Below the pieces are notes generated by a model that saw nothing but the letters and a program-made list of their open reading frames with translations, was not told where the DNA came from and made no database searches. This document shows positions 4,545-57,694 of a stretch of 64,000 bases of DNA, piece by piece. Numbering within the stretch: the first letter of the stretch is position 1; each line of letters begins with the position of its first letter. The stretch lies in NCBI RefSeq assembly GCF_003019035.1, contig NZ_CP027447.1. The stretch is one strand, 5' to 3'. A program made the position numbers and the translations under genes. Source of the DNA: Escherichia coli (GTDB lineage: Bacteria > Pseudomonadota > Gammaproteobacteria > Enterobacterales > Enterobacteriaceae).

Positions 4545-6082
<1,538 letters not shown>

Positions 6083-16924: not shown

Positions 16925-17938
16925 TTATTGCGAAAGAGCAATGAGGGAGCCGCGGCGGATCAGTTTTCCGCTGAAGGTTTTCGGCGGTGAGAAATCCCCA
17001 CCATCGAGCATAAAAATCAGCCGTCCAATAATTTCCTGAATCATCTCAGTCACCGGAATTTTTACGCTGGAGAGCGCCGGAACGGTGTAGGGGGCAATAG
17101 CGATATCATCGAATCCGATAACTGACACCTGCTCTGGCACCGCTACGCCGCGCTCGTGCAACGCTTTCATCGCACCTATCGCCATATCGTCGTTACTGGC
17201 AACTAACGCGCTAAATTTAGCCCCACGTTCGAGCAACGTTTCTACCCCTTCGGCCCCGCTGGCGGGCGTCCATTTACCGTTAGCGATAAGTTTTTCATTG
17301 AGCGCAATACCATGCTGCGCCAGCGCGTCTTTATACCCGGCAAGACGTTCAACGCTGGTGGGGGAATCCATCGAGCCGGTAAGGAAAGCAATCTCCTGAT
17401 GTCCGGCGTTTATCAACTCTGCCACGGCGTTAAAGCTGGTCTGTTTATGATCGCACCAGACGCTATGGCTGGTGTTTTTGCGCAGGCGGCGATTAAGCAC
17501 CATTATCGGCTGACTGTGTGCGTCAATGATGTCATCAATCTCATCCACGCTTAAAAAACGCGGGTAAATCATAATGGCGTCGCAGCGCAAATCCAGCAGA
17601 TACTGAATCGCCTGGCGCTCTTCTTCGGCGCTGTGTTTACCATCTGCCAATAGCAACTGTCGCCCTTTCTCTTCCGCCATTCGCGCGGCATGAAACAGTA
17701 GTTCACTAAAATAAATGCCGTGGTAAAGCGTGTTGGTCACTACCAGCCCCAGCGTCTGAGTACTCTTCGCCGACAGATTGCGCGCCAGCAAGTTTGGGCG
17801 GTAACCGCTCTCTTCTACCGCCTGAAACACGCGATCTTTAGTCTCCTGGCTGACGTAGCCATTACCTGAAAGCACGCGGGAAACGGTCGCTTTTGAAACC
17901 CCGGCGCGCTTCGCCACTTCCAGCATCGTCGTCATCAT
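16925..17938 (-). CDS. ascG: LacI-family repressor of the asc operon
   Basis: HTH MTTMLEVAKRAGVSKATVSRVL; periplasmic-binding-like C-terminus; start chosen at internal Met. Confidence 0.9.
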   Translation of the reverse strand: MMTTMLEVAKRAGVSKATVSRVLSGNGYVSQETKDRVFQAVEESGYRPNLLARNLSAKSTQTLGLVVTNTLYHGIYFSELLFHAARMAEEKGRQLLLADGKHSAEEERQAIQYLLDLRCDAIMIYPRFLSVDEIDDIIDAHSQPIMVLNRRLRKNTSHSVWCDHKQTSFNAVAELINAGHQEIAFLTGSMDSPTSVERLAGYKDALAQHGIALNEKLIANGKWTPASGAEGVETLLERGAKFSALVASNDDMAIGAMKALHERGVAVPEQVSVIGFDDIAIAPYTVPALSSVKIPVTEMIQEIIGRLIFMLDGGDFSPPKTFSGKLIRRGSLIALSQ

Positions 17939-18193
17939 TTTCATCCCTTTACACGCAATCAACGCAGTGTACTGCACCGTTTGCCGATTGTCCTTGCGCA
18001 ATCGGCGGGAAAAATATTCAGGTGACCGGTTTCACAAATATAAAAAATGAACAATTAACTCTCTTGCTTATTTAGTGACAACTATTCATGATTTTGTGAA
18101 ACCGGTTTCCTAATTCCGTTTCAGCATCGGCATTTTCCGTCACGTCGACTGATAACAACTACATCTACCCTACTGATAACAGGATAAAATCCG

Positions 18194-21440: not shown

Positions 21441-21483
21441 TGATCAGACATGAGATAAATGAAGGGGGATCCGTGAGATAAAT
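21441..21483. repeat. Left prophage end with putative transposase-binding repeats
   Basis: TGAGATAAAT at 21451 and 21474; inverted copy at the right end (57652..57661). Confidence 0.6.
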
Positions 21484-21801
21484 AACGAATTGGAGTGGGT
21501 TAACATGGGTTCTGGTGAACAGAACTGAAATTCTTTTTCGTTATACGATAGATAAGTCGGACATTGAAATCATCCTTTCTGGCAACTTAGAATCGAGTTT
21601 GCTGAAACATGACTCGTAACAAAAAGGATGATTCCAATGACTACTCAAAACAATAAGCATGATAGCCTGGATTACTCAGAAAAGCCCAAAAGCAAGCACA
21701 TCGTGACGTTCGAGCGCGATTCCGGTAGAAAAGGAGAATCGTCTTCCTCTGCCAATAAAAACACTATACCGGCAGCTCCTGCTCCGGGGAAAAAATAAAC
21801 A

Positions 21802-22548: not shown

Positions 22549-22947
22549 TTATCTGGATTTGTTAACGTCTCTCGTCTCTTCTGGCAGATCTTCATCAAAC
22601 AACCTGCCCTGCATCCGATCCAGTTCTTCTTTTCTGACCCGCTTAACCACGCTGTAGACCCACTGAAGCGAAACACCAAACTTGCGGGCCAGTTCATGGT
22701 GGTTGCGTCCGTTAAACTCCCGGAAGATTTCCCGGTCGCGCTGACTGACCTTCCATACCATGCCCATCGGGAAATAAACGTTTTGCCCGCCCCAGACCTG
22801 CATCATGCGGTTCGCGACGGCCTGACCAATCTGGTCGGCAATTGCGGGCTCAATATCAATAATCTCGCGAACGGTCTCAGAGGTATGCTGTGCCAGTTCC
22901 ACCAGGAGTTCCGGCCCTTTACTTCGAAACTGATTCAGGTCGCTCAT
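22549..22947 (-). CDS. mor: Mor/C-family middle/late transcription activator
   Basis: IFREFNGRNHHELARKFGVSLQWVYSVVKRVRK closely resembles the conserved Mu Mor C-terminal HTH region. Confidence 0.75.
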   Translation of the reverse strand: MSDLNQFRSKGPELLVELAQHTSETVREIIDIEPAIADQIGQAVANRMMQVWGGQNVYFPMGMVWKVSQRDREIFREFNGRNHHELARKFGVSLQWVYSVVKRVRKEELDRMQGRLFDEDLPEETRDVNKSR

Positions 22948-26176: not shown

Positions 26177-26178
26177 TA

Positions 26179-27345
26179 TTAAACCCCTTTGACAACGTCA
26201 GCGTTGACCTGTGGAACCCCGATTTCAGCGGCCAGATTCATGGCGGCTATCACCAGGTTACTGACGGCCAGCGGATACAACAGGCTGACCATATTTTTAC
26301 GATGACTTCCCGGATTGCTCAGGCGGGCACGTATGGCATCCACTGCACTGGCGTCCATAATGTCCGTCAGTTGTTTACCTGCCCGTTGCAGTTTGAACGT
26401 CAGAAACTCTTCAAGGTTATTGTCCAGAGGCAGAAGTTCGACCACCTCACAGCGCTGAACGACTTCACGGACTTCCATATTGCGTTCAGACAGTTTTGTC
26501 GCCAGTTCCGGCTGGCCAATCAGCACGATGGACAGCAGTTTTTTGAAACCGGACTCCAGCTCAAAAAAGCGTTTGAGGTGTTTCAGTGTCGGAATGGGCA
26601 GACTGTGGGCCTCCTCAATCACCAGAACGTGGCTGAACCCCGCCTGGCTGCTGTCTTTCAGGACGCGATGCAACTGGCGAAAGCGGGCGTCCTGACTGCG
26701 TCTGATGCTTTCCAGTGGTGCGATGGTACTGATAATGGCTTCGGCAATAGCTGCTGCCTTCAGGGTTTTCCCTTTCACATCGTTGTCTTCCATAGCGATG
26801 ATGTATGGCTCGATAACAATTACCGGCGCATTCTCGCGGTTGATACGTTCAGTCAGGTCGCGGCGCAGCGTGGATTTACCCGCACCGGACTCACCGATGA
26901 CGGCCATAAACCCACCATGACGGGCTGTCTGGTACAACGCCTCACGCACGTAGCGAATGTCCGGGGTGGTGAACACATCATCAGAACCCTGCATGGCTTC
27001 GTCGGCGAACGGGTCACGGAAAAGACCAAACGCTTTTTTGGTTGCTGGAAATAACACCTGTTTTTTGAGTAACATATTCTCTTCCTCACTGAGGCTCGTT
27101 TTATCTGTGGTACCCGCTGTACGGGGCGTGGCCGCGCCCTGTACAGCATCAAAACTCTTCGCTGTATCAATCCCCTGACTTTCCAGCCAGGACGCAAGAC
27201 GCCGGCGCACTTCTCCGGGGCTGGTGCGGGGCCACGCGTTATGATTCACAATCTGGGCCAGCGTGGCCTCAGAAACATCGACAGCTCTCGCCACCACCGC
27301 CTGTGGAATACGGGCCTCTTTCAGTTGCTGCTTCAGTACCAGCAT
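26179..27345 (-). CDS. Transposition ATPase (Mu B-like AAA+ protein)
   Basis: Walker A GESGAGKST; N-terminal HTH-like region; GAGGAGG RBS; immediately downstream of the transposase. Confidence 0.8.
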   Translation of the reverse strand: MLVLKQQLKEARIPQAVVARAVDVSEATLAQIVNHNAWPRTSPGEVRRRLASWLESQGIDTAKSFDAVQGAATPRTAGTTDKTSLSEEENMLLKKQVLFPATKKAFGLFRDPFADEAMQGSDDVFTTPDIRYVREALYQTARHGGFMAVIGESGAGKSTLRRDLTERINRENAPVIVIEPYIIAMEDNDVKGKTLKAAAIAEAIISTIAPLESIRRSQDARFRQLHRVLKDSSQAGFSHVLVIEEAHSLPIPTLKHLKRFFELESGFKKLLSIVLIGQPELATKLSERNMEVREVVQRCEVVELLPLDNNLEEFLTFKLQRAGKQLTDIMDASAVDAIRARLSNPGSHRKNMVSLLYPLAVSNLVIAAMNLAAEIGVPQVNADVVKGV

Positions 27346-30603: not shown

Positions 30604-30689
30604 TGTTGTCTCCTTTGTTGATGCAATGATGTTTGTTTTATATGTGATAGATTATGTGAACTATTGTTCTCATTGTCAATGAGGTTTAT
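30604..30689. promoter_or_regulatory. Divergent early/repressor promoter-operator region
   Basis: 86 bp AT-rich spacer between divergent starts; three direct copies of TATGTGA (30641, 30653, 30687). Confidence 0.55.
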
Positions 30690-31115
30690 GTGAATTTTGA
30701 TTCTCTTTGCGCGTCGCGGTTCAAAGCTGAGCGTTCGCGGTTATCACTCAAGCAGGCTGAAGTAGCAGCCCTTTGTGGCGTTTCAAGAGAAATGTGGGGG
30801 AAATATGAACGAGGGGTTGCTGTTCCCGGAGGTGAGTTACTTGCAGCCTTTGCAAGAATTGGGGCCAATGTACAGTTCATTCTTACCGGGGAGTCATCAG
30901 GTATAACTTTATCACGTGATGAAATGGAGTTACTGCAGCACTACCGGCAAGCACCGTTACAGGTCAAAGGTTCAGTTTTGTCGGCTTTGACTACTGGCTC
31001 CTCCAGAGAACGGGCGGAACAGGTTATTCATGGAGATGTTCTGGGGAATGTTATCAAAGGTAACGTAACCATAGGAACAGGTGGAATAATGAACAAAAAT
31101 ACCAAGAGAAGATGA
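30690..31115 (+). CDS. Prophage repressor (XRE-family HTH)
   Basis: GTG start with GAGG RBS; HTH LSLKQAEVAALCGVSREMWGKYERG; divergent from the transposition operon. Confidence 0.75.
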   Translation: MNFDSLCASRFKAERSRLSLKQAEVAALCGVSREMWGKYERGVAVPGGELLAAFARIGANVQFILTGESSGITLSRDEMELLQHYRQAPLQVKGSVLSALTTGSSRERAEQVIHGDVLGNVIKGNVTIGTGGIMNKNTKRR

Positions 31116-33832: not shown

Positions 33833-33962
33833 GTTGCATTCTCCTCTGTGAATAATTCATCGTTTATCCTGCACATCCCGTATCCCCGGCTCTCTTAACG
33901 CGCTTTAAAATCCTTCGCGCCCTGTATTTGTGATGCTGTCTCCACCAGACAAGGAGACACAC

Positions 33963-36004: not shown

Positions 36005-36315
36005 TGGTCGATATTACCCGGGTACGCCGCGAATCCCTGCGCTGGAGTCTGCTGGTTGCCCTGAACAAAACCCGCCCTTACACCGCCAGCGAAACGTTGC
36101 TGCTGGACGTGTCCCGTGCCATCTACCCGGACACCACGCAACTGGAGCTGCGCCGGGAGCTTGATTATCTGGCAGATCGCAAAATGGTGGAGCTGGAGAA
36201 GAGACCGTCCGGTGACTGGTTTGCCGATCTGAGTCGCCTTGGTGTGGATATTGTGGAATACACCGTGGAATGCGGCCCGGGTATTGCCCGCCCGGAAAAA
36301 TACTGGAGTGAGTGA
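36004..36315 (+). CDS. Hypothetical protein (103 aa)
   Basis: ORF in operon context upstream of the packaging genes. Confidence 0.45.
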   Translation: MVDITRVRRESLRWSLLVALNKTRPYTASETLLLDVSRAIYPDTTQLELRRELDYLADRKMVELEKRPSGDWFADLSRLGVDIVEYTVECGPGIARPEKYWSE

Positions 36316-36866
36316 TTATGGGACGTCGCAGCAGCATTGATTCTCTGCCGACGGAGGTCCGCCGCTGGCTGGAGCGGGCACTGACGGAGAATAACTTCAG
36401 TGGATATGCCCGGCTGGAAGCCCTGCTGAAGGAGAAGGGATACGTCATCACCCGCTCTTCCCTGCAGCGGTTTGGCTACAAAATGGAGCGACAACTGGCC
36501 CGCATCCGCGCCGCCACCGAGGCCGCGCGTCTGATGGCGCAGGAAGCCGGTGACGAGGCGGACGATCGTTCTGCCGGGATGATGGCACTGATTCAGACCG
36601 AGATGCTGGATGTTCTGATGCGTCTGCAGGAAATCGGGGAAAGTGATGATCCTGCAAAACGCGCAAAACTGCTGGCCACTGCTTCGGAAAGTATAGCCAC
36701 ACTGGTACGGGCTTCGGTGACCCACAAGCGATTCCGGGCCGAGGTGCTGGCAAAAATTGAGGCGCGGATGAATGCTCTGGAAAAACAGGCGAAGTCCGGC
36801 GACACCCGCCTGAGTCTGGAAACCCTGAAGATGGTGCGGGAACAGATTTACGGGGTGATCTCATGA
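36312..36866 (+). CDS. Mu gp27-like protein (possible terminase small subunit)
   Basis: 184 aa immediately upstream of and overlapping the terminase large subunit. Confidence 0.5.
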   Translation: MIMGRRSSIDSLPTEVRRWLERALTENNFSGYARLEALLKEKGYVITRSSLQRFGYKMERQLARIRAATEAARLMAQEAGDEADDRSAGMMALIQTEMLDVLMRLQEIGESDDPAKRAKLLATASESIATLVRASVTHKRFRAEVLAKIEARMNALEKQAKSGDTRLSLETLKMVREQIYGVIS

Positions 36867-38179
36867 CAGCGGCCATTCAGCTGTATCCCTATCAGCAGTC
36901 GTGGTTTCTGGATCGTGCCCGTTTCAAGATTGGTATGTTTGCCCGTCAGACGGGCAAGACGTTCACCACCACGCTGGAACTGGTTGATGACTGTTTTGAA
37001 ACGGAGGCCTCAGGGGGACGTACACGCTGGGTGATCCTCTCGCGCGGGGAGCGTCAGGCAAAAGAAGCCATGGTGGAGGGGGTGAAAAAACACTGCAGCG
37101 CCTACCGGATGGCGGCCCGTGAGGTGGAAAGTTATTACCGTGCTGAAAGCGGCGAACGCTACACCATGCTTGAGGTGGAGTTACCCGGCGGCTCCCGTAT
37201 CACGGCCCTGCCGGCGAATCCCGACACGGCTCGTGGGTTTGCGGCTAACGTCTTTCTGGATGAGTTCGCCTTCCATGCCGACAGTCGCAAAATCTGGACC
37301 GCTCTGTTTCCGGTCATTTCCAACGGCTACAGACTGCGTGTGACATCGACACCGAACGGCAAGGGAAACAAGTTTTATGAACTGATGACCAGCAACGCCC
37401 TTGAAAATGTCTGGTCACGTCACATCGTGGATATTTACCGTGCCGTGCGTGATGGTCTGCCGCGGGATATTGCACAGATGCGACAGGCGCTCAACGATGA
37501 TGACGCCTGGGCACAGGAGTTTGAACTGAAGTGGCTGGATGAGGCATCGGCCTGGCTGACGTTTGAACTGATTGACGGCGTGGAGCACGATGCTGCCGGG
37601 CTGCCGGTGCACTATACGGGTGGCCCCTGCTTTGTGGGGGTGGATATTGCTGTTCGTAATGACCTGTTTGTCATCTGGGTGCTTGAACAGGTGGGGGATG
37701 TCTACTGGACCCGGGAAATCATCACCCGTAAACGGGCCACCTTTGCTGAGCAGGATGCTTTGCTGGATGACGTATTTTTCCGTTACCGCGTGCTGCGCTG
37801 CTGTATGGATCAGACCGGGATGGGAGAAAAGCCGGTGGAGGATGCACAGGGTCGCCATGGCAGAAGCCGTGTGGAGGGGGTGATATTTAACAGCCCGAAC
37901 AAGCTCACCCTCGCGACCCGTGGCAGGGAGATGTTTGAGGACCGCCGCCTGCGTATTCCGGCGGGAGATGTGGTCCTGCGCAGTGATCTGCATAAACTTC
38001 GCAAGGTTACCGGGCCTACCGGAACTCCCCGCTTTGTGGCCGAAAGTGATGCAGCAGGTCACGCCGACCGCACATGGGCCTGTTTTCTGGCAATAAACGC
38101 CACTGACGGACCGTCAGGGCCGGTGATGGCCCGTTCGCGTCACCGCCGTGAGGCTGGTCATATACTGGAGGGATTCTGA
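36863..38179 (+). CDS. Terminase large subunit (Mu gp28-like)
   Basis: 438 aa; Walker A-like FARQTGKTF; nuclease-like C-terminus. Confidence 0.8.
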   Translation: MTAAIQLYPYQQSWFLDRARFKIGMFARQTGKTFTTTLELVDDCFETEASGGRTRWVILSRGERQAKEAMVEGVKKHCSAYRMAAREVESYYRAESGERYTMLEVELPGGSRITALPANPDTARGFAANVFLDEFAFHADSRKIWTALFPVISNGYRLRVTSTPNGKGNKFYELMTSNALENVWSRHIVDIYRAVRDGLPRDIAQMRQALNDDDAWAQEFELKWLDEASAWLTFELIDGVEHDAAGLPVHYTGGPCFVGVDIAVRNDLFVIWVLEQVGDVYWTREIITRKRATFAEQDALLDDVFFRYRVLRCCMDQTGMGEKPVEDAQGRHGRSRVEGVIFNSPNKLTLATRGREMFEDRRLRIPAGDVVLRSDLHKLRKVTGPTGTPRFVAESDAAGHADRTWACFLAINATDGPSGPVMARSRHRREAGHILEGF

Positions 38180-39675: not shown

Positions 39676-40477
39676 ACTGGCGTACTGCATGACGCTTCCC
39701 CCGAAGCGGGCAGTCAGTTACCTGAAGTCCAAAGGGTATCAGATTACCTGGGACTGGGAAGAAATGTGGCAGGAAGCCCATGCCCGCGCCTTTACCGTCG
39801 CTAAAGTGACCCGCCTGGATATTCTGGAAGATATTCGCGGGGCACTGCAGCAGGCTGTCGATGAAGGAAAAACCGATCGCTGGTTCCGGCAGGAGCTGGA
39901 GCCGGTGCTGAAGCGTAAGGGATGGTGGGGACCACGTGACACGACTGACCCGGTAACGGGTGAGCCGGTCACCATTCAGCAGGGCAGCCCGTGGCGGCTC
40001 GACACCATCTTTCGCACCAATATGTCCGTACTCTACAGCGCCGGTCGTTGGGCGGAGCAGATGGAAAACGTCGACGACAGGCCGTACTGGATGTATACCG
40101 GCATCAACGACAGCCATACCCGCAGGAGCCATCTGGCGCTGCATGGTCTGGTGCTGCGCTGGGATGACCCGTTCTGGCAGGCATTTTACCCGCCGAACGG
40201 CTGGCGCTGCCGCTGTAGTGTGATTGCCCTGAGTGCGGCGGATGTACGTGCCCGGGGCCTGAAGGTTATCAGCTCCGGCTCTGCCATGGGCCAGGAACTG
40301 AAACTGGTCTCAGAGAAAACCGGCGAAATGCGGAACGTGGCCACCTTTAATACCGGCACCACGAAGGTGACCACCGACGTCGGCTGGTCTTATGCACCGG
40401 GGGCAGCATACCGTCCCGACCTGGCCCGCTATCAGGGTACGCTTCAGCCACTGGCACAACAGGAACTGAGAGGATAA
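39656..40477 (+). CDS. Head morphogenesis protein (Mu F-like)
   Basis: Follows the portal as in Mu; start at ATG for MSVTTAEL. Confidence 0.7.
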   Translation: MSVTTAELAYCMTLPPKRAVSYLKSKGYQITWDWEEMWQEAHARAFTVAKVTRLDILEDIRGALQQAVDEGKTDRWFRQELEPVLKRKGWWGPRDTTDPVTGEPVTIQQGSPWRLDTIFRTNMSVLYSAGRWAEQMENVDDRPYWMYTGINDSHTRRSHLALHGLVLRWDDPFWQAFYPPNGWRCRCSVIALSAADVRARGLKVISSGSAMGQELKLVSEKTGEMRNVATFNTGTTKVTTDVGWSYAPGAAYRPDLARYQGTLQPLAQQELRG

Positions 40478-40479
40478 CA

Positions 40480-40938
40480 ATGGCTTCCGATAACCTGGTC
40501 AGTATCACCATTAACGATAAATCCCTGCGCCGGAGCCTCCGTGCGCTGGATCTTGCTGCCACAGACCTGGAGCCCGCGATGCGCAAAATCGCCGGAACCC
40601 TGCTGGCGGAAACACAGTTTAACTTTCTTGATGAGGGGCGTCCGGGGTGGATGCCCTCGCTGGCAGCGGAAGAACGTGACGGGCAGACACTGCAGGATAC
40701 CGGGCGTCTGATGGGGTCAGTATCAACCGACCATGACGCCCGGCAGGCTGTTGTGGGGACCAACGTTGTTTACGGTGCCATTCACCAGTTCGGGGGTAAA
40801 ACGGGGCGTAATGAGTCTGTTGAACTTCCGGCCCGCCCGTTCCTGCCGGTGACGGGGGATGGAGAACTACAGCCTGAAGTGGTAATCCCCATCCTCGATA
40901 CCATTGTCCGCCATCTTGAATCAGCGGCCCGTCGCTGA
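40480..40938 (+). CDS. Virion morphogenesis protein (Mu G-like)
   Basis: 152 aa, position after F. Confidence 0.65.
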   Translation: MASDNLVSITINDKSLRRSLRALDLAATDLEPAMRKIAGTLLAETQFNFLDEGRPGWMPSLAAEERDGQTLQDTGRLMGSVSTDHDARQAVVGTNVVYGAIHQFGGKTGRNESVELPARPFLPVTGDGELQPEVVIPILDTIVRHLESAARR

Positions 40939-40980
40939 GTTTTCTCTCTTCAGGCGGGTGATTTATCATTGCCAGCGAAT

Positions 40981-41026
40981 GAGGGGCTGTATTACCTTTA
41001 TAAAGGCTTTACAGCCTCTGTTTTAT
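40981..41026 (+). terminator. Putative terminator between head-assembly and capsid operons
   Basis: Stem ggggctgta/tacagcctc followed by gttttat. Confidence 0.45.
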
Positions 41027-41152
41027 AACCGCTTCCGGTTCACCGCATTGCTTTCCCTGTCCTTCTCCCCTGATGTTTTCTAAAGCAGATTAAAATCGCC
41101 GGGCCTGCATTTCTCACAAACTGTCTCCGACAACATAACGCGGGACAGCAAA

Positions 41153-42268
41153 ATGTCAGCCATTCACATTTTTAAAGCCGGTACTCATACCGATATGCAC
41201 GGCAAAAAACTGCCGTTCACGCCAGACGATCTTGCCGCCTGCGTGAAAGCCTATGACCCGTCCGTCCATGAAGCACCACTCGTGATTGGTCATCCCAGAA
41301 CGGAAGACCCGGCGTGGGGCTGGGTGAAAGCCCTGTCGCTCAGCGGCGTCGATCTGATGGCAGAGCCTGCCCAGCTGGACCCGCAGTTTGCTGAGATGGT
41401 CACCGACGGACGATTCAAAAAAGTGTCCGCCTCTTTCTACCTCCCGGATTCACCGTCCAATCCGAAGCCCGGCGTGCTCTACCTGCGCCATGTGGGCTTT
41501 CTCGGGGCACAGCCACCTTCCGTCAAGGGGCTGAAACAGGTGTCCTTCAGTGAGCAGGAAGAAGGTGTGGTGGAGTTCGCCGACTGGCAGGCCATCACGA
41601 ATGCCTCCCTGTGGGGAAAGCTGCGCGATTTTCTGATCGCCCGCTTCAGTCTGGACGAGGCAGAAAAAGTCCTGCCGGAATGGCAGCTCAACAGTCTGCG
41701 CGAAGAGGCGTACCGCGACACACTGTCGCAGGATGCAGCAGGTGCCCAATTCAGTGAGACAGGCCCGGGGCCGTCTTCCGCAAGTAACGAGGAATCATCG
41801 ATGACAAAAGAAGAGATTGAAGCCCTTCAGGAGGAGAACCGCCGCCTGAAGCAGCAGGCTGCTGATCGCGATGCGCGTGATGCACAGGTCAGACAGGAGC
41901 AACTGCATAAGGACAATGTGGCCTTTGCAGAAAAACTGGTCGCAGAGGGCCGTCTGGCTCCCCGCGCCTCCTCCGTGGTGGTTGCCCTGCTGGATGCCGT
42001 CGCCGGTGGCGACAAGCCGGTGGAGTTTGCTGAGGGGGAAAGCCGCACACCGCTGGCCACCGCCTTTCGTTCATTGCTCTCCGACGGGGAGCCGGTGATG
42101 AATTTCGCCGAACAGGCCACAAAAGAGCGTGTCGGCGACACGGTGAAGGTGGATGTGGCGGAGTTTGCGGAAGCCGATCCTGAGCGTCTGGCCCTGCATC
42201 AGAAAGCAGTGGCCCTGTCCAAAAAAGAAGGCATCAGCTATGAGGCTGCTGTCGCACGCTGCCTGTAA
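41153..42268 (+). CDS. Putative head protease/scaffold (Mu I-like)
   Basis: 371 aa with coiled-coil C-terminal half, immediately before the major capsid gene. Confidence 0.55.
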   Translation: MSAIHIFKAGTHTDMHGKKLPFTPDDLAACVKAYDPSVHEAPLVIGHPRTEDPAWGWVKALSLSGVDLMAEPAQLDPQFAEMVTDGRFKKVSASFYLPDSPSNPKPGVLYLRHVGFLGAQPPSVKGLKQVSFSEQEEGVVEFADWQAITNASLWGKLRDFLIARFSLDEAEKVLPEWQLNSLREEAYRDTLSQDAAGAQFSETGPGPSSASNEESSMTKEEIEALQEENRRLKQQAADRDARDAQVRQEQLHKDNVAFAEKLVAEGRLAPRASSVVVALLDAVAGGDKPVEFAEGESRTPLATAFRSLLSDGEPVMNFAEQATKERVGDTVKVDVAEFAEADPERLALHQKAVALSKKEGISYEAAVARCL

Positions 42269-46969: not shown

Positions 46970-46976
46970 CATCACA

Positions 46977-47001
46977 GGGGCTCCGGCCCCTTCTTTTTAA
47001 T
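46977..47001 (+). terminator. Rho-independent terminator inside the tail operon
   Basis: GGGGC-TCCG-GCCCC hairpin followed by TTCTTTTTAAT. Confidence 0.65.
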
Positions 47002-47066
47002 CCCCTTTAATATCCGTCACGTCCACCGCCAGACATACTGCTCTGAATTTACAAAGGAGTATGATC

Positions 47067-47577: not shown

Positions 47578-50043
47578 GTGGCCAGTGAATTTTCAGTCGG
47601 CGTCATTATTGGCGGCATTGTCGGGAGCAGCTTCCGCTCAGCCGTCAGTGGCACCCGACGCGCCCTTGATTCCCTTGGTGATACCTCCCGCCGTCTGCAG
47701 GAACGCCAGAATGCCTTAACCCGGGCAACAGAACGTTATGGTCAACTGGGTTCTTCCCGGATGCAGCATCTCAACAGCGAGTTGCTGCGGGTAAGCCGCA
47801 CCATGGAGCAAATTGAACGTCAGCAGCGCCGTCTGTCAGCAGTATCAGCCACCGGTGATGCGTTGAAGGCTAACCGCCTGGCGCTCTATGGTCAGGGTGC
47901 AGAAACCTATGCTATTGGCAGAACGCTGGGCGCACCGGTCATGGCCTCGGTTAAACAATATGCCTCGTTTGAATCACAGTTGCGGGATATCAGTGTCACA
48001 GGAGACCTGGATGCAAAACAGGAACGTGCAATTGGCCAGGCTATCAGACAGGCCTCGCTGAAGGTTAACCAACTGCAGGAGTCTCTGTTAGGGGGAGTCG
48101 GACAATTAGTTGCTGATGGTATGGCCCCCGAACGGGCAGCAACGTTTGCAGAGATGCTTGGAAAGACCGCTACAGCAACCAAAGCCGATATGACCGACCT
48201 TGCCAAAATGACTTATGCCTTCAGCGATGCACTCAGAATCACTGATGCGAAAGAACTTGAACAGGCGTTTGGTATTGCGGCAACAGGAGCCAAACTTGGG
48301 TCATTTGAGCTGAAGGATATGGCAAAAGCATTACCCGGTATGGCTAAAGCCTTCGCTGCTCGTGGTATTTATGGAAAAGATGCGATTACCCAGATTGTTG
48401 CCAGTCTGGAGGTCGGTAAAGGTAGTGGCTCTGCAGAGGAAGCGGTCACCAATATGTCCAACTGGCTGGCAGCAATGGGCCGCGGAGATACCATCCAGAA
48501 ATATGCTAAAGCCGGGGTGGATTACCAGGGGTCAATGCAGAATTACGTCGCTCAGGGTTTTTCGCAGTACGAAGCTTCACTGATGATTGCCAACCGTTTT
48601 ATCGACAGTAAAGGCAAAGCGTTCTTGCAGCAATGGAAAGCTGCAGGAGCAAGAGGCGATCAGGAAGGTCAGCAGAAACTCATGGAGTCATTTGGTCTGG
48701 CTGAGGTCTTTACCGATATTCAGACTGTCAACCATTTACTGTCAATGCGACAGGGCTGGGATAAATACCTTTCCAGTAAGCAGGAAATGAATGCTCCGGC
48801 TGCAATGTCTACCCTGGATAAGGATGCTGCAAAGCAGAATGATACGCTTGAAGGTCGCTGGCGCAGAATGCAGATCGGCTTTAATGATTCTGCTATCAGC
48901 ATCGGGCAATCCTTGCGTCCGGCTTTGCTCCAGTTGGGTGAAACATTTATTCCTTTAATGGACAGCGTCGGCAAATGGATAGCGGCAAATCCGCAGCTCG
49001 TCAGCAGCACCATAAAGGTTGTGGGCGCATTACTCGCTTTCAGGATGGCCACTATCGGTCTCAAGTTTGGGCTGAATCTCCTTATTTCCCCCTTTGTAAG
49101 CGTCTGGAAAAATGCTGTTTTACTTCGGGCCAACTGGCTTCGTCTGATGCTCGCACTGGGGGAAGGCGGTAAACTCCGCTGGCTGGTGACAGGCTTTGGT
49201 GCCGTCGCCAGAGGAGCCAGAACACTGGGGGGTGTGCTCTCAGGGGGGCTGGTTCGCGGAATTATGAGCGCCGGGCGTGCCGTTCTCTGGATTGGCCGGG
49301 CGCTGATGATGAATCCCATCGGTCTCGCTATCACCGCCGTCGCGGCAGCAGCTTACCTTATCTACCGCAACTGGGGCGCGGTCAGTAGCTGGTTTAAACA
49401 GCGCTGGGCTGACATTCAGGAAGCCTTTAACGGCGGTATCGCGGGAATTGGTAAACTGCTGGTTAACTGGTCTCCGGCAGGTCTGCTTTATAAAGCCTTT
49501 GCGGCTGCGCTGAAATATCTCGGCGTTGATTTGCCGGCGAAATTCACCGACTTCGGTGGTCATCTTATTGACGGGCTGATAAATGGCATCAGAAACAAAT
49601 GGGAGTCACTGAAAACCAGCATAACCGGAATGGGTGACAGCATCAGTGACTGGTTCAGCGAAAAGCTGGGCATCCATTCACCGAGTCGCGTGTTTATAGG
49701 CTTTGGTGACAATATCGCGCAGGGTGCCGCCATTGGCCTGCAACGGACCACTCCGCTTGCTGCACTGGCCGGGCAGCGCCTGGCCGCTGAAATGACACCG
49801 GATGTTCCCCGTATCCCGTCGCCGGAAATCATGGCTGCCGGATATTCAGGCCGTGGCGCAACGGCAACCGGCGGTGGAGCGTCTGGCGGTATCCAGGTCA
49901 GCTTTAATCCTCAGTTTTTCCTCAATGGTAAGGAAACCGCAGCGCCTGCCGGGCTGACTGGTGCCCTGAATATGAGCCTGCATGAGCTGGAAAAAATGCT
50001 GGAGCGTCTGCTGGCTCAGAAACAACGTAAGGAGTACAGCTGA
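47578..50043 (+). CDS. Tail tape measure protein
   Basis: 821 aa, helical, Ala/Gly-rich with hydrophobic central segments; GTG start with AGAGGA RBS. Confidence 0.85.
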   Translation: MASEFSVGVIIGGIVGSSFRSAVSGTRRALDSLGDTSRRLQERQNALTRATERYGQLGSSRMQHLNSELLRVSRTMEQIERQQRRLSAVSATGDALKANRLALYGQGAETYAIGRTLGAPVMASVKQYASFESQLRDISVTGDLDAKQERAIGQAIRQASLKVNQLQESLLGGVGQLVADGMAPERAATFAEMLGKTATATKADMTDLAKMTYAFSDALRITDAKELEQAFGIAATGAKLGSFELKDMAKALPGMAKAFAARGIYGKDAITQIVASLEVGKGSGSAEEAVTNMSNWLAAMGRGDTIQKYAKAGVDYQGSMQNYVAQGFSQYEASLMIANRFIDSKGKAFLQQWKAAGARGDQEGQQKLMESFGLAEVFTDIQTVNHLLSMRQGWDKYLSSKQEMNAPAAMSTLDKDAAKQNDTLEGRWRRMQIGFNDSAISIGQSLRPALLQLGETFIPLMDSVGKWIAANPQLVSSTIKVVGALLAFRMATIGLKFGLNLLISPFVSVWKNAVLLRANWLRLMLALGEGGKLRWLVTGFGAVARGARTLGGVLSGGLVRGIMSAGRAVLWIGRALMMNPIGLAITAVAAAAYLIYRNWGAVSSWFKQRWADIQEAFNGGIAGIGKLLVNWSPAGLLYKAFAAALKYLGVDLPAKFTDFGGHLIDGLINGIRNKWESLKTSITGMGDSISDWFSEKLGIHSPSRVFIGFGDNIAQGAAIGLQRTTPLAALAGQRLAAEMTPDVPRIPSPEIMAAGYSGRGATATGGGASGGIQVSFNPQFFLNGKETAAPAGLTGALNMSLHELEKMLERLLAQKQRKEYS

Positions 50044-52805: not shown

Positions 52806-52861
52806 ACCTTCTTAAACGCCTTTAATATCGGCGCTTACTTCCCGGGGGCAATACTGCCTCC

Positions 52862-53209
52862 ATGAAAACGACCTCAGTATTCTGGCAACCAGCTCTGCAG
52901 GCTCCCGGCGAAATCGTCCGGGGGCTGGATGATATCCGGCAGTCCATCCAGATCATCCTGCGGACTCCCCGCGGCAGCGACCCGCATCGCCCGGAGTTCG
53001 GCAGCAATCTGCACCTTTATATCGACTGGCCTGTCGACCGGGCCATTCCGCATGTGGTTCGCGAATCCGTCGATGCCATCAGGCGCTGGGAACCCCGCTG
53101 CCAGCTTATGTCGGTTAAACCCGCCGTCGACGGCGAACATCTTACGCTCCGGGTGAGCTGGAAAGGCTCAGACGGACAACCCCGTACTCAGGAACTGCTA
53201 TGGCGCTGA
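52862..53209 (+). CDS. Baseplate wedge (GPW/gp25-like)
   Basis: 115 aa; position. Confidence 0.7.
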   Translation: MKTTSVFWQPALQAPGEIVRGLDDIRQSIQIILRTPRGSDPHRPEFGSNLHLYIDWPVDRAIPHVVRESVDAIRRWEPRCQLMSVKPAVDGEHLTLRVSWKGSDGQPRTQELLWR

Positions 53210-57616: not shown

Positions 57617-57651
57617 TTCTTTTTCTGATATTGAAATGCCGCGGCGATGTA

Positions 57652-57694
57652 ATTTATCTCACGGAAATAGGTACGTTTATCGCGCGGCGCATCA
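57652..57694. repeat. Right prophage end with putative transposase-binding repeat
   Basis: ATTTATCTCA (inverse of TGAGATAAAT) 33 bp inside the terminus, symmetric with the left end; terminus ...GCGCATCA. Confidence 0.6.

Follow-up and report, generated by a model that had tools for sequence, protein, structure and literature searches.

Late transcription in phage Mu starts from four documented C-dependent promoters (PMC4461284, PMC12867686). Dimers of Mor and C bind a 16-bp imperfect dyad of 5-bp repeats around a G/C-rich 6-bp spacer, which is centred at -43.5, and the promoters they serve have a -10 element and lack a -35 element (PMC4390567, PMC2582627). For MuC, the consensus over four sites is TTAT-N5-6-ATAA (PMC12867686). 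In the AF083977 annotation, the 196-bp gap between Mu genes G and I contains a gyrase cut site at 17879/17880, followed by a predicted terminator at 17908-17953 and then by the C-dependent promoter P_I at 17977-18043, ahead of gene I. When measured on the sequence, the distance from dyad centre to hexamer start is 31.5 nt at each of the Mu late promoters (4/4). Gyrase sites between gpG and gpI have been reported for both Mu and FluMu (PMC2628397), and the strong gyrase site (SGS) has also been reported in Mu-like prophages (PMC3820752).

The DNA analysed here is a stretch of 64,000 nucleotides from Escherichia coli (the window), in which a Mu-like transposable prophage of the BcepMu type carries a non-coding gap between its Mu G-like gene and its protease/scaffold gene. 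Over 1.8 kb around the gap, the sequence matches Escherichia phage PhiKM (genus Bcepmuvirus) at 99.7% identity and Klebsiella phage KP12 at about 81%. Judged by sequence, the gap appears to be the BcepMu-group counterpart of the textbook Mu control region and an element of the expected kind. We put at roughly three in four the probability that it forms a Mu-like boundary of two late units, made of a hairpin terminator or attenuator and a Mor-dependent promoter. According to this model, the stem-loop at 40982-41019 and its short U-tract would end or attenuate transcripts arriving from the holin promoter; a dimer of the Mor/C-family product of 22549-22947 would bind CTAA-N6-TTAA at 41086/41087, replacing a -35 element; the bound activator would recruit sigma-70 RNA polymerase to the weak -10 hexamer CAAACT (41117-41122); and transcription of the protease/scaffold and capsid genes would start near 41129. 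The binding of the Mor homologue, the start site and termination are what we infer; the elements are listed here with their flanking genes and the presumed activator gene.

22549 to 22947, minus strand: Mor/C-family activator gene, the only one found (PF08765, 1.1e-43)
40480 to 40938, plus strand: Mu G-like virion morphogenesis gene (PF05069, 4.9e-23)
40982 to 41019, plus strand: two-tier hairpin, candidate intrinsic terminator or RNA 3'-end element (from folding and conservation)
40997 to 41012, no strand assigned: invariant core TTTATAAAGGCTTTAC (= TTTATAAAGG(C)TTTAC), from conservation among relatives
41020 to 41028, plus strand: T-tract GTTTTATAA directly 3' of the hairpin (GUUUUAUAA), from the sequence
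41029 to 41070, no strand assigned: variable spacer without a conserved element (57% identity to KP12 over 41018-41070, with indels)
41079 to 41098, plus strand: predicted Mor-family activator site, dyad plus AATCG, member of a four-site family
41117 to 41122, plus strand: -10-like hexamer CAAACT without a -35 hexamer, 30.5 nt from the dyad centre
41121 to 41148, plus strand: inverted repeat CTGTCTCCG...CGGGACAG (-10.7 kcal/mol, z -2.2)
41129 to 41130, plus strand: predicted transcription start, 7-8 nt past the hexamer
41153 to 42268, plus strand: protease/scaffold gene, 371 aa (48.8% identical to BcepMu gp32)

The preliminary description of this DNA had given the gap as 214 bp (40939-41152), and this is exact, the stop codon of the G-like ORF ending at 40938 and the 371-aa ORF starting at 41153. 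Its statement that this is the only sizeable gap of the head module also holds, as the other junctions between the small terminase and tail sheath genes overlap or span no more than 14 nt. The tail of the gap, which had been called AT-rich, deserves this name in relative terms only: its last 126 nt have 50% G+C compared with 59% in both flanking genes, and its first 88 nt have 42%. On the upstream side, 40480-40938, whose counterpart is annotated Mup31/G in phage PhiKM, is the last gene of the upstream late transcription unit. On the downstream side, 41153-42268 is the first gene of the capsid unit and was correctly named as a protease/scaffold gene: BcepMu gp32, to which its product is related, contains the nested gp33, and the two are annotated as equivalents of Mu I and Z. 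Pfam returned no match for the 371-aa ORF.

The gap had further been proposed to contain an operon boundary and a Mor/C-dependent late promoter, a proposal that is supported in silico by a motif family, by the geometry of the sites and by the presence of a Mor-family gene. Four sites in the window share the 20-mer yTTAAn-SSSS-TTTAAwATCs, which comprises a TTAA-N6-TTAA dyad and is followed, after 18-19 nt, by the hexamer nAnACT and then by a G; the hexamer of the holin site, GATGCT, departs from nAnACT. All four sites lie on the plus (late) strand in the four sizeable late gaps.

33894 to 33937, plus strand: holin late promoter, CTTAACGCGCTTTAAAATCC ... GATGCT (20-mer from 33894, hexamer 33932-33937)
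41079 to 41122, plus strand: protease/scaffold late promoter of this gap (20-mer from 41079, hexamer 41117-41122)
46996 to 47039, plus strand: tail-chaperone late promoter, TTTAATCCCCTTTAATATCC ... CATACT (hexamer 47034-47039)
52811 to 52855, plus strand: gpW-like baseplate late promoter, CTTAAACGCCTTTAATATCG ... AATACT (hexamer 52850-52855)

The sister dyads read TTAA-CGCGCT-TTAA, TTAA-TCCCCT-TTAA and TTAA-ACGCCT-TTAA. The dyad of the gap, CTAA-AGCAGA-TTAA at 41080-41093, is more degenerate than any of these (10.2 bits vs 29-31), its left half-site CTAA and its spacer being the least typical. Searches of the window returned exactly 4 matches to the full dyad pattern, with 0.07 expected, and 5 matches to TTAAWATCS-N20-23-RCTG, with 0.04 expected. 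Because these patterns were written after the sites had been seen, we made two independent tests, one by leaving out the head site and one on relatives. For the former, a matrix built from the other three sites was combined with the hexamer at fixed spacing and run over both strands of the 64-kb window; the head site was the only additional match in 128,000 positions, and block shuffles gave 0.085. When the dyad is scored without the hexamer, the head site comes about 7th among the 128,000 positions. For the latter, the window-derived matrix was applied to KP12, where its top four matches were the four syntenic sites with the hexamer at equal distance, and to BcepMu (Burkholderia, 63% G+C), where it picked the syntenic sites of the G|I and V|W gaps and the one ahead of the holin gene; the tube|gp41 gap of BcepMu holds a fourth. 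Ralstonia, Pasteurella and Pseudomonas phages also have sites homologous to the one in the head gap, as does a third enterobacterial lineage, in which the dyad reads CTTAATGGGGGTTAAC and the 21-nt spacer is unrelated in sequence and identical in length. Across the phages compared, 15 of 16 sites have a distance of 30.5 or 31.5 nt between dyad centre and hexamer start; in the BcepMu-type group it is 30.5 nt, with 31.5 nt at two sites. The elements themselves, their recurrence at four late operon starts, their conservation and their Mu-like geometry are matters of observation.

Two further partial matches to the pattern were seen in the window, one outside the prophage (5385-5419) and one antisense in the early region (26178-26197, ATTAAACCCCTTTGACAACG). 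Both are weak, and the full dyad-plus-hexamer test gave them no support.

Conservation within the gap follows the same elements. Compared with KP12, the dyad block is 89% identical and the stretch from the -10 hexamer to the ATG 92%, against 56-57% for the stretches between these blocks, which is about the third-codon identity in the capsid gene. The homologous site of BcepMu reads CGTAAAGCCGATTAAAAGAC, and the hexamer of the relatives is CAnACT, with the third position alone varying. It could be argued that the gap holds an ordinary constitutive sigma-70 promoter or none at all, and that it is a mosaic junction crossed by read-through from the holin promoter. The hexamer is indeed weak, CAAACT agreeing with TATAAT at only 3 of 6 positions, and phage gaps can be recombination joints. 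A generic sigma-70 scan found no match, and hence no -35/-10 pair, on the plus strand of the gap, which speaks against a constitutive promoter; the same blank is expected for the predicted activator-dependent promoter because it lacks a -35 element, and gives it no positive support. A 9/12 match on the minus strand, from 41159 to 41132, is at chance level (4 found vs 3.5 expected). A mosaic junction sits poorly with conserved blocks against a diverged background, and with a motif that recurs with fixed spacing at four late operon starts and in distant relatives. We consider this explanation highly improbable, and predict that 41079-41122 is a Mor-dependent late promoter and the counterpart of Mu P_I.

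The comparison with Mu P_I is close in layout. Both promoters lie between a G-like and a protease/scaffold gene and are one of four late promoters, both have a dyad of 4-5-bp half-sites around a 6-bp spacer in place of a -35 element, both are preceded by a two-tier hairpin, and both use the identical hexamer CAAACT, at 31.5 nt in Mu and 30.5 nt here. With a start at 41129-41130, the dyad centre would lie at about -43. The two differ in their half-sites, which are TTAA/TTAA here and TTAT/ATAA in Mu, and beyond the hexamer there is no sequence similarity between them. Moreover, the fourth promoter serves a baseplate gene here and mom in Mu.

Differences also extend to the activators, since the prophage has one Mor/C gene and Mu has two. 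The product of 22549-22947 is 31% identical to Mu Mor and 35% identical to Mu C, and 94% identical to its KP12 homologue, a degree of conservation that fits the conserved binding site. Among the regulatory genes of the leftward early operon, its gene comes last, and in this respect resembles mor, which likewise ends the early operon. The single gene, compared with the two of Mu, suggests that the cascade probably has two steps rather than three. Similarity to the Mu middle promoter Pm would include the Mor dimer, the 16-bp dyad with its G/C-rich spacer, the position at -43.5 and a -10 without a -35 element (PMC4390567); the difference is that Pm drives the single middle operon (gene C), whereas the site described here would drive structural genes directly. 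The Ogr/B-dependent promoters of P2 and 186 offer another parallel, namely four late promoters without a -35 element that depend on a phage activator, and the tail genes of the prophage are P2-like. However, neither the gap nor the other late gaps contain the P2-type dyad TGT-N12-ACA, its count in the window is at chance level (13 vs 15 expected), and no Ogr-type gene was seen. An Ogr-type late promoter was rejected on the absence of this dyad from the late gaps.

If the assignment is right, the four promoters and the recognition sequence of their activator (TTAA-N6-TTAA, about 30 nt before nAnACT) would provide a handle on the timing of lysis and virion gene expression and a compact definition of late promoters for the entire Bcepmuvirus group. 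The Mu paradigm, in which four late promoters depend on an activator and the G|I gap holds one of them, would be extended to a distant branch with a single Mor/C gene. This group consensus is one of two modest additions that we see in the data, the other being a deeply conserved central palindrome described below.

Downstream of the dyad, the inverted repeat at 41121-41148 links the promoter to the translation start region: its 5' arm (41121-41129) shares bases with the -10/+1 region, and the weak Shine-Dalgarno sequence GGGA (41143-41146) falls within its 3' arm (41140-41148). Relatives with the third type of gap flanks (type 3, see below) retain the stem with an unrelated loop. As transcripts are predicted to start at about 41129, the hairpin would be possible only in read-through RNA, and we speculate that it would favour translation from promoter-initiated transcripts. 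Inverted repeats running from promoter to Shine-Dalgarno sequence were also noted at the holin promoter, GTCTCC..GGAGAC (33938-33960), and at the tail promoter, CATACT..AGTATG (47034-47059), and an analogue at Mu P_I is CTGCTCA..TGAGCAG (Mu 18026-18049). Such repeats could mask the ribosome site only in read-through RNA. At the baseplate promoter, AATACT ends 6 nt before the ATG (52862) of the gpW-like gene (52850-52864), and a transcript starting 7 nt downstream of the hexamer would be leaderless. The same proximity of hexamer and ATG is seen at the V|W and G|I promoters of BcepMu and in Pseudomonas phage Komp_PAO1_1, which has an in-frame upstream ATG just past the hexamer.

The first half of the gap contains the hairpin and U-tract that had been reported for it, and both are real. 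The hairpin starts 44 nt past the G stop codon on the transcribed strand. Its outer stem of 10 bp pairs AGGGGCUGUA (40982-40991) with UACAGCCUCU (41010-41019) and encloses a 3x3 internal loop and an inner CCUU/AAGG stem; the structure folds with -20 kcal/mol (z -3.7, none of 200 shuffles folding as well) and is followed by GTTTTAT. It is 97% identical in KP12, against 57% for the neighbouring spacer. The terminator predicted by TransTermHP in the Mu G|I gap (17908-17953) is built alike: its hairpin, of about -20 kcal/mol, contains an inner sub-stem and has UUUUAU behind it. The hairpin of the window probably ends or attenuates transcripts from the holin promoter.

The lack of a conserved U-tract among relatives makes this role less certain. 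An alignment of the gap across 64 viral contigs, with 42 distinct versions among them, separates three types of flanks. Behind the hairpin, the window reads G-UUUU-A-U (5 U in 8), and in contrast to the Mu terminator, close relatives of the prophage lack a U-tract: the KP12 type reads CGCTTTGCA and type 2 reads CCCTCGTTTAC, the same post-stem position being occupied by CGCUUUGC in the KP12 type and by GCACUAUU in type 3. A generic terminator scan flagged only an inner version of the hairpin (41004-41017) and, at 40921-40938, a weak one that spans the stop codon, and its total of 12 is not above shuffles (8.4 +/- 3.3). A terminator is therefore plausible in the lineage of the window and is not a conserved property; it may be weak or lineage-specific. 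In the tail gap, a canonical intrinsic terminator is present at 46976-46999 (GGGGCU-CCGG-CCCCUU plus CUUUUUA), the T-tract of which extends into the left half of the dyad of the tail late promoter, and the tube|gp41 gap of BcepMu has the same arrangement. The abutting terminator and promoter of the tail gap support the existence of terminator-promoter modules in this phage.

Alternatively, the hairpin with its A/U-rich top may be, instead of a terminator, an RNA processing or stability element, such as a target for RNase III/E or a structure that protects the 3' end of the upstream message, or the palindrome within it may bind a second regulator as DNA. The types differ in how they frame the palindrome CCTTTATAAAGG (40995-41006): in the window/KP12 type, the arms GGGGCTGTA/TACAGCCyC enclose it; type 2 has a different G/C hairpin just upstream of it; and type 3 has a hairpin after the stop codon and a second stem, GGCTTAAA/TTTACAGCC, which encloses it. 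BcepMu and phiE255 read CCCGTAAAG-TTTTATAAAGG-CTTTACGGG with two differences. A hairpin is found in every lineage and the U-tract is not, the palindrome tops a hairpin in the window, type 3, BcepMu and phiE255, and the 5' arm differs by lineage (GGGGCTGTA, GGCTTAAA, CCCGTAAAG) around a 3' arm that keeps CTTTAC. Both changes from BcepMu to phiE255 preserve pairing as G.U, which is relevant only in RNA. The distance between palindrome and dyad varies (86, 85, 76 and 68 bp), showing that the palindrome is not phase-locked to the promoter. On the other hand, no stem encloses the palindrome in type 2 relatives, no true compensatory double changes were seen, and an Rfam scan of 40400-41700 (E up to 1) matched no family. 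As for a second regulator, the palindrome does not score as a Mor-type site. An RNA element or second-regulator site seems possible, if rather doubtful, and we prefer the terminator or attenuator reading for the hairpin.

A small protein encoded in the gap was considered as well, since a 59-aa ORF with a TTG start is listed at 40904-41083 and the KP12 gap is annotated with a 41-aa hypothetical protein (KP12_270). We rejected this idea because of indels between relatives: single-base indels distinguish the window from KP12 inside the ORF (alignment columns 129 and 169). In addition, type 2 and type 3 relatives have unrelated sequence there, and the ORF of the window lacks a Shine-Dalgarno sequence and overlaps the end of the G gene. 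That the gap encodes a protein is extremely improbable.

The palindrome belongs to the invariant core of the gap. All 42 distinct gap versions share CCTTTATAAAGG(C)TTTACAGCC, and the G|I gaps of BcepMu, phiE255, Ralstonia YO107_2 and Pseudomonas Komp_PAO1_1 likewise contain TTTATAAAG(G/C). The core is unique in the KP12 and BcepMu genomes, and the single TTTATAAA in the entire BcepMu genome is that of the core. It lies at 54% of the prophage length and at 51% in BcepMu. A scan of viral contigs with the 15-nt core gave mostly chance matches in A/T-rich phages; among the matching contigs, G/I homologues were present only in BcepMu itself. No exact or near copy of the palindrome was found at the other late gaps. 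A second exact 10-bp copy, CTTTATAAAG, is located at 49486-49495 inside the tape-measure gene and is probably due to chance, because it is absent from KP12 and BcepMu.

The core may be a gyrase site, part of a terminator or a protein site. Two other candidates were rejected by inspection. An IHF site has one mismatch in the core of the window and is broken by a 1-nt indel in type 2 as well as by the core variants of Pseudomonas and Ralstonia, and a sigma-70 promoter whose -10 element would be the TATAAA within the palindrome lacks a conserved -35 element on either strand.

Having the Mu G|I gap as a precedent, we asked how well the hairpin half agrees with a strong gyrase site. The order proposed in the preliminary description, a hairpin followed by a promoter, has stood; no element had been placed precisely, though, and the gyrase site that Mu carries in this gap had not been taken into account. 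The hairpin or palindrome may be, or overlap, a site like the Mu SGS, which would be compatible with a promoter in the second half of the gap; gyrase acting at the centre would supercoil the prophage and help to synapse its ends for replicative transposition. The Mu cut site is positioned 20 nt past the G stop codon in the same gap, and the central location of the core here and in BcepMu compares with 48.7% for the Mu SGS; in each case the site is unique in its genome. The Mu cut is at AAAATC^AGCCGCAC; the corresponding sequence is CTTTACAGCCGCAC in type 3 relatives, which share 9/9 nt (CAGCCGCAC), and CTTTACAGCCTCTG in the window. The window has CAGCC in common with Mu at and after the cut position, and in both, A/T palindromes stand beside a G/C stem. 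Overall or extended similarity to the SGS is lacking, however, as the window shares only CAGCC and type 3 only CAGCCGCAC. Gyrase sites are degenerate, and a 16-mer that is exactly conserved across distant hosts is not predicted for them; conservation of the core is far stricter than that of known gyrase sites. BcepMu has its AGCC-like string on the opposite side of the palindrome. In 2004, Oram and Pato reportedly found that the central site of the Mu-like prophage of S. Typhi CT18 is cleaved by gyrase without supporting Mu replication. Crude gyrase templates based on the published consensus (strong/weak or exact-match) did not recover the SGS in Mu and were discarded. PMC13284261 yielded no simple rule for gyrase sites, and a frequency matrix for them has been published as Table DS10 of PMC6379681. 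On the basis of these comparisons, we treat a strong gyrase site as a serious rival for the hairpin half or as an additional function of it, one that may apply and that we nevertheless think unlikely.

More broadly, and tentatively, the core might be the heart of an organising site at the centre of the genome of BcepMu-type phages, with a role in gyrase action, topology or synapsis. If so, recognition of this site would be far more sequence-specific than that of the Mu SGS, and the hairpin surrounding it would have been rebuilt with different arms in each lineage. The central palindrome is a concrete candidate for the gyrase or organising site that is expected in transposable phages other than Mu.

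With respect to its wider setting, the 1.8-kb stretch around the gap is present in 638 of 5,426 complete E. coli genomes (about 12%), and the carriers include the ST131 strains JJ1886 and EC958. Comparison with an empty site places the limits of the prophage at 21441/21442-57694 (36.25 kb), with termini TGAT...ATCA and a 6-7-bp target duplication, ATTCCT(T); the insertion interrupts a hypothetical gene. Early genes run leftward and end with the Mor-family gene; from about 33963 the genes for lysis, head and tail follow in rightward orientation. The left end (21441-21485) reads TGATCAGACATGAGATAAATGAAGGGGGATCCGTGAGATAAATAACG and the right end (57640-57694) ...TAATTTATCTCACGG...GCGCATCA; the repeated (CCG)TGAGATAAAT units at the two ends are likely transposase binding sites.

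Several further features were recorded. The terminase region (36312-38179) is unlike that of PhiKM, which is elsewhere near-identical, and that of the JJ1886 prophage, and blastn finds nothing in the window to match bases 1-2076 of PhiKM. The large terminase has 438 aa here, with complete Terminase_6N and Terminase_6C domains, compared with 513-531 aa in PhiKM and JJ1886, and the region looks like a swapped module. In the JJ1886 copy of the prophage (L058 10317-12733), the IS66-family element ISEc23 is inserted just upstream of the holin gene, in the part where the window has its holin late promoter. Finally, the divergent early-control region at 30640-30700, between a leftward HTH gene and a rightward HTH_3 repressor-like gene, contains repeated TTATGTGAA-like units, which are possible operators.
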